Shown one piece after another: positions 3,001 through 5,531 of a stretch of 5,531 nt of DNA; the stretch's first letter is position 1; each line of letters opens with the position of its first letter. The stretch comes from a virus (taxonomy: Duplodnaviria; Heunggongvirae; Uroviricota; Caudoviricetes), in the IMG/VR virus record IMGVR_UViG_2671180429_000018. One strand, written 5' to 3'. Position numbers: made by a program.

Positions 3001-5531
3001 ATGGCGTTCAATGACCTTGAATATCAAGCAGTAAAAAAAGAAGTTCACCAATTCATTGAAAGCATAAGGCCGCCTGAACATATCCGCAATGAACTGGATA
3101 TTGTTTATAGCATCAATGACCAAACGATAGATATCGGCGAACAGCGCCCCGTGTGGCAGGGCAATCCAGGTGAAACAAACATCCTGCCATCAGCAAGAAT
3201 CAAGTACATACGTTCTCTGGATAGATGGAAAATCTATTGGATGCGGAAGGATATGAAATGGCATCAGTACAGTACTGAACTTTCGCTGACTGATGCGCTT
3301 GAGCTTGTGCGTGCTAACCCGGATTGCTGCTTCTTCGGATGAGTGAAGAGACGTTTGGATGATGGATGGTCGCAGAGATGCGGCCTGATTCTAAAATAGG
3401 ATATAAAAAATGAGAATACTAGGTGTTAGAGCGGCGCCCAAAGTTACATCTTTTGTTGTATATTGCACTAATGAGTCTGCACTCAAATGTGTTGATGTTA
3501 TTAAAATACCTTCGACCTTAGACACACCAGAAAAATTAAAGTATGTGAGAAATAACATCCTCGACATTCTTAATTTATATAATGTTGAATTAGCTGCCAT
3601 ACGCGTTACTGAATCAAACTCTGATAATCTTAGCATTGACCGCCTTTATATAGAAGCTGTTATTCAAGAAGCATTTTCAAGCAGTGATGTAAGAAAATAT
3701 TACACTATTAGAAAATCTGGCATGAAATCATCATTGAACCTAACAGAGATCGAGTATAAAGAAATATTGAAGTCACACCGCAATATAAATGGAATCGATA
3801 ATTCTGGTTTTACAACTGAAACAAATGAAGCTGTTTTGGCTGCACTATCTGCGGAGGTAAGGGGATGCTAACTCCATACAAAAGAGCTGATGTAGAATTC
3901 GAATGGATTAGTGATCTAGAAGAACAGGGTTGTTTTTCAAAAGTATATCTGGCTCATGACAGACACCTAGCTCATGACTTGGTGATTAAAGAAATAGAAA
4001 AAAAAGAAAACACTAACCACGACGACTACTTTAATGAAGCAAGGCTTCTCTATAAACATGCACATCCAAATATTGTGCAAGTTCAGTATGCTGCTCAATG
4101 TGAGAGCAATATCTATATAGCCATGCCATTTTATCATAATGGTTCGCTAAACCAATTAATGAAAAAAAATAATCTTACAAGCAGGGAGATAATACGGTAT
4201 TCCATTCAATTCTTAAGTGGACTTTATCATATACACTCAAAAGGTCTTATGCATTTTGATATAAAACCTAATAACATTATGATATCAAACAGAAATGAGG
4301 CCATGCTATCTGACTTTGGATTATCTCAGTTAGTCAATGAGGAATCGAGAGCTGCGCCTGAGTTTGGATATCATTTTCATGTGCCACCGGAATATTTTTC
4401 TTTATCAACAAATGATTATAATTTCACATATGACATATATCAGGCAGGATTAACCATATATAGAATGTGTGTTGGACATGATAATTTTGAAAGAGAAAGA
4501 TCTGCATTTAGCACGATTGAACAACTCAGAGAGTCGATAATTAATGGCTGCTATCCATTAAAAGAGTATCCTCCCCATATACATAAAAAATTAATAACAA
4601 TAGTGAACAAATGCATTCATGTAGATCCAAATGAAAGATATCAATCCGTACTAGATGTACTAAACGATCTCTCAGCTATAAGTGATGGCGTTCTTGACTG
4701 GCGTCTACAGATGACGAAACCAACTAACGGCACATGCGAATGGCAAAAAAAGTCTGGGGACGCTATACTGTCTATAGTTTTTGACGCAGAAAATTCGTCT
4801 ACTACTGGTTTTCGTTTATACGATGATGGGCGGAAAAGGCGTGCTACGAACTTAACAATATCCTCAGGATGTACCCCTACAAAACTGTATAGGTTATTAA
4901 AGGATAACTGATCATGAAAAAGCGCGAGGAAGTAAGCAAGCTGCCTCGCAGACGTGATGCAGCATTAGCGGTTCCCTACAAAAAAGATGAGTTCATAAGC
5001 CCTTCTGATGACAAAAAATTTTCAAAGGCGAAAAGTTTTACATCTACATCTCTAAAAGATAAATACTTTAAAATCTAGCCCGGCCTCAGCGCCGGGTTTT
5101 CTTTGCCTCACGTTCGCCCACCTAAAAAACATAACCAATTGTATTTATTGATGTAACTCGCTAAACCATGCAGTTATGATCCCTGCCGCATAACCTTCAT
5201 CAGCCACATTTTCAAAAATAAATTTCCTTATATATCAGAATCATACTTCGTAGAGTTAATAAATCACCAAAATTCGTACCAATAGTTCTTGATAATGTCG
5301 AACTATTGGTTCATTATTATCGTCGTCAGCAGGACGCATTACTCACCAGGGCGGTGAATATACAACGATTCGTGAACCGCCCCGGTTTTCCTGGAGAGTG
5401 TTTTATCTGTGAACTCAGGCTGCCAGATCATCGTTTCTGATGGAAGCATAATAAGCTTTTTCTGCTTCTGCCGGAGGAATATGGCCCAGCCTTTCCAGCA
5501 ATCGTCGATTGTTATACCAGTCCACCCACGT

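Follow-up and report, generated by a model that had tools for sequence, protein, structure and literature searches.

Identity of the Locus

Does the kinase gene located downstream of the repressor gene cI in the prophage segment IMGVR_UViG_2671180429_000018 belong to a phage exclusion system, and are the two small open reading frames (ORFs) that bracket it components of the same system? The 5,531-nucleotide (nt) stretch analyzed here, named the window in the following sections, is the immunity region of a lambdoid prophage whose map was drawn from its ORF list and from the annotations of matching records. By its near-identity to phage 933W the locus is the 933W Stk exclusion locus, which is already known. 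The explanation that accounts best for our observations, and which we consider probable, is that the window carries the Stk abortive-infection locus of a 933W-type Shiga toxin (Stx) prophage and that Stk is the middle subunit of a three-gene cassette.

The complete window is a 100% match to the Stx1a prophage of Escherichia coli O103:H2 PV16-126. A base-by-base comparison of window positions ~1400-5372 with phage 933W identified a single difference, a silent T>C change at 4212 (F116 of the kinase). Megablast alignment to 933W gave 100% identity over 2473 nt, and the identity stops at position 5372. The region of phage phi24B is identical to window 2900-5372. The encoded proteins are identical to those of 933W, the gene order is the same, stk occupies the same position between cI and the terminator tM, and its neighbours are the same L0084, L0083 and L0081; the 933W annotation provides all the elements discussed below (pM, cI, L0084, L0083, stk, L0081 and tM). 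The initial annotation, which was made from the sequence alone, had pointed to a stk kinase of 933W at this position. This was right but understated the case: the window is the 933W immunity region itself. The stk locus of 933W was reportedly annotated in 1999 and characterized in 2004 and 2011.

The three genes are all found on the + strand. L0083, also named 'res' (3410-3871), codes for a 153 amino acid (aa) protein with a RuvC fold but without the first catalytic Asp of RuvC. It is followed by stk (3865-4911), coding for a 348-aa protein composed of a Hanks-type kinase (residues ~20-262) and a C-terminal beta-meander-plus-helix domain (~275-348), and by the third cassette gene L0081 (4914-5078) that codes for a 54-aa basic protein (phrog_4063, 2.5e-39). 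An AGGA ribosome-binding site is located 7 nt 5' of the L0083 ATG (3410). The L0083 and stk ORFs overlap by 7 nt, the AAGGGG Shine-Dalgarno sequence of stk being inside L0083, and a gap of 2 nt separates stk from L0081. The coordinates, lengths, motifs and translational coupling first assigned to the trio were all reproduced.

The published biology of Stk gives its functional context. Stk is a eukaryote-like tyrosine kinase of the 933W prophage that shows little or no activity in uninfected cells, is activated on infection by phage HK97, and is involved in exclusion (PMC3681748). It is considered an abortive-infection system, conceptually paired with lambda Rex (PMC6356687), and is one of two characterized phage protein kinases (PMC8008677). 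The proposal of a kinase-centred exclusion or abortive-infection module, put forward initially from the gene arrangement, is thus in agreement with the role published for the same sequence (PMC3681748, PMC6356687, PMC8008677). In that literature stk is presented as a single-gene function, whereas here it occupies the middle of a conserved cassette of three genes.

A Conserved Three-Gene Cassette

Genomes were scanned for relatives of L0083, retaining one genome per species, which yielded 39 loci. They span Gamma-, Beta- and Alphaproteobacteria, Bacteroidota, Firmicutes (Clostridium carboxidivorans, Lachnoclostridium) and Acidobacteriota. A Stk-like kinase gene is found at, or overlapping, the stop codon of the L0083-type gene in 39/39 loci (phmmer E 1e-62 to 1e-133 where the kinase is complete; three loci carry contig-cut or frameshifted kinase pieces). 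The association holds in the opposite direction: starting from the kinase, an L0083-type gene lies directly 5' in 77/80 viral contigs, the other three being cut at the contig start or truncated. The kinases of Pseudomonas aeruginosa, Acinetobacter baumannii and Elizabethkingia also have an L0083-type partner upstream. A basic ORF of 50-71 aa is present near the kinase stop in every locus with enough downstream DNA.

The close relatives of L0083 number 75, found in Enterobacterales and a few beyond. A profile search of 1.84 billion representatives extended the family to 442 L0083-type clusters, 253 of them at E <= 1e-10 and nearly all 148-166 aa long. Even in two of the most remote representatives a Pkinase gene directly follows the L0083-type gene, and one of these loci adjoins BilD. 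In Klebsiella and Proteus prophages, which have other repressors and replication genes, the repressor is followed by the same succession of a ~150-aa protein, a ~345-349-aa Pkinase protein and a 53-59-aa protein. Within E. coli the 1.7-kb block is whole in 223/5426 complete genomes (~4%), mostly from Shiga-toxigenic strains, and it is whole in 224 of the 226 matching E. coli records.

Comparison with a relative that has 81% kinase identity gave dN/dS ratios of 0.05 (RuvC-like gene), 0.08 (kinase gene) and 0.20 (small ORF). The pairwise identities of partner and kinase are correlated across 36 loci (r = 0.92). The trio is a real co-inherited cassette that is under selection across bacterial phyla. 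The initial annotation could not verify if the flanking ORFs are part of a described system; the co-occurrence, translational coupling and purifying selection found in >100 loci strongly support, by comparison of sequences, that they belong to the system.

The surroundings of the 39 loci include repressors, integrases, capsid, portal and tail genes, insertion sequence (IS) elements, and defence genes such as type I restriction-modification (R-M) methylases, Old, AriA and AbiL-type ATPases. A 42%-identical copy of L0083 is found directly after a Wadjet JetABCD operon. The A. baumannii cassette lies among prophage tail genes and that of P. aeruginosa on an integrase island, while the Elizabethkingia cassette comes directly after an LlaJI-type R-M system within an integrative and conjugative element (ICE) that also carries ArdA. 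This context is the pattern of a mobile defence cassette. It also bears on the idea that Stk would serve Shiga-toxigenic E. coli in virulence or host signalling instead of phage defence. Such a role might be suspected from its resemblance to eukaryotic kinases and from its presence in Stx prophages of pathogenic strains, but the cassette is carried by marine, soil and commensal bacteria belonging to several phyla and is adjoined by defence genes, and formation of attaching/effacing lesions is unaffected by the loss of stk (PMC3681748). We consider a virulence function highly improbable.

The trio has a G+C content of 32-38% (3450-4650) versus 44-55% in the flanking phage genes (~45% in cI and in the DUF3024 gene), which agrees with the cassette having been acquired horizontally as one unit of cargo.

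Searches of the trio against Pfam and PADLOC 2.0.0 gave a clear Pkinase match for Stk, and no PADLOC 2.0.0 model matched L0083 or L0081. No description of the three-gene system or of a dead-RuvC partner was found in the literature accessible to us, whose coverage leaves out most subscription journals. The three-component architecture thus seems undescribed, in spite of the Stk locus itself being known.

The Stk Kinase

Stk matches the Pfam Pkinase family (PF00069) over residues 21-260 with 158.8 bits (cut-off 31.7). The residues K42 (in VIKE), E58, H130, D132, K134 and N137 (in HFDIKPNN), D150-F151-G152 and P175-E176 are invariant in alignments of 37 and 38 homologues from several phyla. By these motifs Stk is a catalytically competent Hanks-type kinase, and the earlier description of VIKE, HFDIKPNN, DFG and PPE as an intact catalytic set was accurate. 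So was that of a C-terminal extension of about 75 aa: it is real and conserved, with a length of ~75-85 aa and invariant W279 and W293. Kinases of the Stk family are uniformly ~340-350 aa long and have their own C-terminal domain.

The catalytic loop HFDIKPNN, with a Lys two residues past the Asp, is of the Ser/Thr type and differs from the loops of tyrosine kinases (HRDLAARN or HRDLRAAN). The reported tyrosine specificity of Stk is taken from a paper title, that of Tyler & Friedman 2004, which PMC3430580 cites. This specificity is a biochemical property that is not predictable from the catalytic-loop motif. Residue Y169 (window 4369-4371), in the activation segment seven residues before the PPE glutamate, is nearly invariant (36/38 sequences). 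Ser/Thr kinases usually have Thr or Ser at the equivalent position, and tyrosine kinases Pro. Y169 may have to do with the unusual combination of a Ser/Thr-type loop and a reported tyrosine specificity.

The stk gene is split into two ORFs in four IMG/VR E. coli prophage contigs (L096, L097, L100, L102) and in a Pseudoalteromonas locus (L025), the split corresponding to a 1-nt length difference in L096, L097 and L100. The RuvC-like and small genes are kept intact in these loci. Such alleles suggest that the kinase is occasionally inactivated, perhaps owing to its cost.

The RuvC-Fold Partner L0083

The product of L0083 had been described as a 153-aa unknown protein. The size was right, but the protein is not wholly unknown: its structure, predicted with a pLDDT (predicted local distance difference test) of 91.6, matches the three-dimensional fold of RuvC. 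The relationship is faint at the sequence level. Scores are below the cut-offs of both the Pfam RuvC profile PF02075 (14.2 versus 22.2 bits) and NCBIfam NF000711 (12.5 versus 163 bits), and a profile search of the PDB by sequence returned chance matches only (E ~0.4). Alignment to E. coli RuvC with hhalign, using a RuvC sequence entered by hand, had a probability of 1.4%, with a sensible register in the N-terminal part.

This weak profile alignment places GVR7 of L0083 on GID7 of RuvC and AIR65 on AIE66. In the 38 sequences compared, R7 never varies and position 65 is always R or K. By this weak alignment the acidic tetrad of RuvC (D7, E66, D138 and D141 in E. coli) is not preserved in L0083; E140 may match D141. 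Metal binding by the RNase H-like tetrad depends on its first Asp, and L0083, which is devoid of it, is predicted not to cut DNA as RuvC does. Other charged residues invariant in the L0083 family are R47, E68, R78, E82, E87 and E140. These conserved residues argue for a putative binding surface or an altered site.

Several database records annotate L0083 as 'res' or 'RuvC-like Holliday junction resolvase', which raises the alternative of an active resolvase acting in phage recombination, with a kinase that regulates it or is unrelated to it. The bacterial and phage RuvC resolvases differ from L0083, which is 12-17% identical to them, has Arg at the position of Asp7 and Arg or Lys at that of Glu66, and always adjoins a kinase. 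Added to its scores under the RuvC family cut-offs and to its absence without the kinase in any of the loci examined, L0083 is expressed in the lysogen and not in lytic growth (PMC4651098, PMC3342100). These properties make a working resolvase very unlikely.

The Small Basic Protein L0081

The start of the small ORF is positioned from -29 to +20 nt relative to the kinase stop, and most commonly between -4 and +10; the sole exception is locus L042 (+88). All the encoded proteins are basic, with isoelectric points (pI) of 9.0-11.5, as had been noted for L0081. They have in common an N-terminal 'MK', an invariant Arg within a [ST]R motif and a C-terminal aromatic motif. The label 'substrate-like' given to L0081 at the outset is speculation.

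A tiny, fast-evolving and translationally coupled gene placed downstream from a kinase that kills on activation, in a cassette found on prophages, ICEs and islands, could also signal that the main role of the trio is that of a toxin-antitoxin or addiction module, with the kinase as toxin, L0081 as its labile antitoxin or pseudosubstrate and L0083 as an adaptor. Exclusion would be a by-product of antitoxin loss induced by the trigger. A precedent is provided by the kinase-kinase-phosphatase (KKP) module of Pf prophages, a defence module that resembles a toxin-antitoxin system (PMC11341870). However, the small gene lies 3' of the toxin gene, and the frameshifted stk alleles of L096, L097, L100 and L102 keep the small ORF. 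We rate this alternative as rather unlikely; it agrees with a large part of the observations, overlaps the preferred explanation of a three-gene abortive-infection cassette and is not exclusive of a defence function.

Expression in the Lysogen

The promoter pRM (pM; 2198-2225, + strand) was transferred from the 933W annotation (record L002, 799-826, offset +1399), in which the sequence is identical. The first gene of the lysogenic transcript is cI (2233-2940, + strand), an ORF annotated in 933W that codes for a LexA/S24-type repressor (Pfam Peptidase_S24, 4e-16, and HTH_3). The intrinsic terminator tM (5077-5098, + strand), identified by a terminator scan and by the 933W annotation, closes the transcript. 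Its hairpin has an 8-bp stem with 6 G-C pairs, followed by the TTTTCTTT T-run, and the stem starts within the L0081 stop codon. The trio is indeed found in the slot occupied by rexAB in lambda, between cI and the terminator, as first described, but the DUF3024 gene (3001-3342) intervenes, so that the cI-tM interval holds four genes and not three.

In the lysogen cI, the DUF3024 gene and the trio would be transcribed from pRM up to tM. For stk and 'res' this is shown in published work; for pRM and tM the source is the 933W annotation. Control of stk by pRM, with expression confined to stable lysogeny, was published (PMC3430580), in line with the co-transcription with cI that had been anticipated. 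Expression of stk, cI and 'res' is unchanged on phi24B induction, and expression of 'res' in lysogens had been demonstrated earlier (PMC4651098). Two-dimensional polyacrylamide gel electrophoresis revealed, in phi24B lysogen cultures only, two proteins whose genes lie 3' of cI (PMC3342100). The data of this last study hint at differential mRNA stability or at an unrecognized promoter between cI and the trio; a consensus scan found no internal + strand promoter just 5' of 3410.

A 933W lysogen excludes phage lambda ~million-fold, and lambda plates again when it carries the immunity region of 21, 434 or P22 (PMC6989128). The 933W determinant may be the trio, the DUF3024 gene or something else.

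Proposed Mechanism

The published behaviour of the identical protein defines the outcome: Stk is nearly silent until a sensitive phage such as HK97 infects, after which host proteins are tyrosine-phosphorylated and the cell yields no phage. The steps that could place the partners in this scheme are inference only. L0083 would be a non-cleaving, probably dimeric, sensor or scaffold that recognizes either intermediates of phage DNA in branched or annealed form, or the phage-encoded recombinase by which these are produced. It would then join two kinases via their C-terminal domains, leading to trans-autophosphorylation. L0081 might be a regulator that holds the kinase off, as a pseudosubstrate or in an antitoxin-like manner, or else the first substrate.

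A candidate trigger comes from HK97. Exclusion is said to require HK97 gene 41 (Friedman 2011). In both HK97 records the genes are ordered abc2 (39), 40, erf, 42/42.1 and kil (43), an order that makes gene 41 the gene of an Erf-like single-strand annealing protein. HK97 erf is found at 24175-24780 (L061/L062), and the Erf-type recombinase would be the trigger if gp41 has this role. Phage 933W carries bet/exo and not erf; if Erf is the trigger, this would account for the prophage leaving its own kinase inactive. Taken together, a recombinase as trigger and a Holliday-junction-binding fold may form a coherent picture, which is offered as a lead. A wider proposal, that Stk is the kinase of a widespread unnamed three-gene anti-phage system whose arginine-substituted RuvC-fold partner senses phage recombination and whose small protein is a brake or first substrate, is possible, and we advance it tentatively, with the balance of probability tilted against it.

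A number of points weigh against the three-gene explanation and the mechanism built on it. Exclusion of HK97 has been credited to Stk only, as a single-gene function (PMC3681748, PMC6356687). The loss of nuclease activity in L0083 is deduced from a weak profile alignment combined with a fold match, and E68, E82, E87 and E140, invariant or nearly so, could form a different active site. The C-terminal domain of Stk gave no informative fold match. No fusion between RuvC-like protein and kinase was present among the best 150 of the 442 representatives, the few longer entries looking like mis-called starts, so that a physical contact has no Rosetta-stone support. Sequence conservation of the small protein is poor, and some loci have Phe or another residue in place of its conserved Tyr. 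As for the trigger, nothing relevant to HK97 gp41 as a trigger of Stk was found in the literature accessible. Gene 41 is erf by numbering only; GenBank AF069529 labels the erf product 'Gp40', the same as the preceding gene. Purified Stk reportedly autophosphorylates without partners (Tyler & Friedman 2004), so that the partners would not be needed for catalysis.

An alternative is that Stk alone is the defence and that L0083 and L0081 are passengers or accessories with no role in exclusion. Besides the credit given to Stk in the literature and the activity that recombinant Stk is reported to have by itself, the comparators are built differently: the PD-T4-6 model matches the kinase domain only, and Stk2 is a single locus (PMC11341870). 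Against this stands the linkage of the trio, which is maintained across Proteobacteria, Bacteroidota, Firmicutes and Acidobacteriota in all assessable loci (39/39 and 77/77) while the surroundings change. Start and stop codons overlap or abut, and purifying selection acts more strongly on the RuvC-like gene than on stk. The true passenger, the DUF3024 gene, is lost outside 933W-type loci. A defence made by Stk without its partners is unlikely in our opinion.

Comparison with Known Systems

Lambda RexAB and the three-gene Stk cassette share their slot, from cI to the pRM terminator, their expression in the lysogen and the abortive infection of superinfecting phages, and the two were paired in PMC6356687. 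Their components differ. Lambda Rex consists of a sensor and a membrane ion channel, whereas the Stk system has a protein kinase and a RuvC-fold partner. No Rex model was found among the PADLOC matches of the DUF3024 and trio proteins that would point to RexA/RexB homology.

A Hanks-type kinase domain acting in phage defence is common to Stk and to PD-T4-6, Staphylococcus Stk2, MAD6 of MADS and PglW of BREX. In PADLOC, the best of the PD-T4-6 models matched Stk at 1e-37 (128 bits, kinase domain only), and mad6 matched at 6.7e-50. To judge by its score, Stk is related to PD-T4-6 without being a close member, and the PD-T4-6 models are without the two obligate Stk partners. The NCBIfam models of MAD6 and PglW are also matched by the kinase domain only, with scores far under their equivalog cut-offs. 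Membership of MADS was ruled out by the MAD6 score (122 bits versus 460) and by the neighbours, which are cI, the DUF3024 gene and IS629, with no mad genes. Membership of BREX was ruled out by the PglW score and by context.

The KKP module of Pf prophages (Guo et al. 2024, PMC11341870) is likewise a prophage-borne multi-gene kinase module tied to defence and lysogeny. It is composed of two kinases and a phosphatase, versus a RuvC-fold protein, one kinase and a 54-aa protein in the present cassette; no phosphatase was found in the cassette or next to it in the source locus.

The comparative result sharpens two questions, namely how Stk stays silent and how it recognizes HK97. If the kinase is always accompanied by its two partners, in hundreds of sequence clusters ranging from E. 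coli to Clostridium and Flavobacterium, the single-gene view of Stk and the kinase-only models of defence-finding programs overlook two-thirds of the system. L0083 would be a candidate for a nuclease fold that has been put to new use as a sensor. Homologues of the cassette are found in Klebsiella, Proteus, A. baumannii, P. aeruginosa and Elizabethkingia. The cassette could thus be of importance to phage therapy and to anti-virulence approaches in which phages are directed against 933W lysogens.

Neighbouring Genes and the IS629 Insertion

L0084 (3001-3342, + strand), located between cI and the trio, codes for a 113-aa DUF3024 protein (Pfam DUF3024, 1.2e-30, 106.5 bits versus a cut-off of 24.9) that matches the PADLOC single-gene candidate PDC-S43 over its full length (4.4e-41). 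A DUF3024 gene accompanies the trio only in 933W-type loci and in a Proteus penneri locus (L014); it is absent from the Klebsiella and P. mirabilis loci. It was ruled out as a fourth component on the ground of its absence from most trio loci. The pRM transcript may carry two independent putative defence cargos, the DUF3024 gene and the trio.

On the opposite (-) strand, the ORF list and the matching records place the replication gene O (521-1459), cII (1492-1788) and cro (1927-2154).

The window departs from 933W at the end of an IS629 element (IS3 family; 5373-5531, - strand), which lies outside the system. The element sits inside nutL (933W nutL corresponds to window 5335-5401) and its terminal repeat TGAACCGCCCCGG begins at 5373. 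Just 3' of the cassette this prophage differs from 933W, the segment nutL-N-xis having been removed by IS629. In the source genome (L004, 11415-13718) the integrase gene follows directly after the IS, and N, cIII, kil, gam, bet, exo and xis are all missing. With this gene content, the IS629-bearing Stx1a prophage probably cannot make N or excise normally. The gene loss linked to IS629 may affect induction and toxin output of this prophage.

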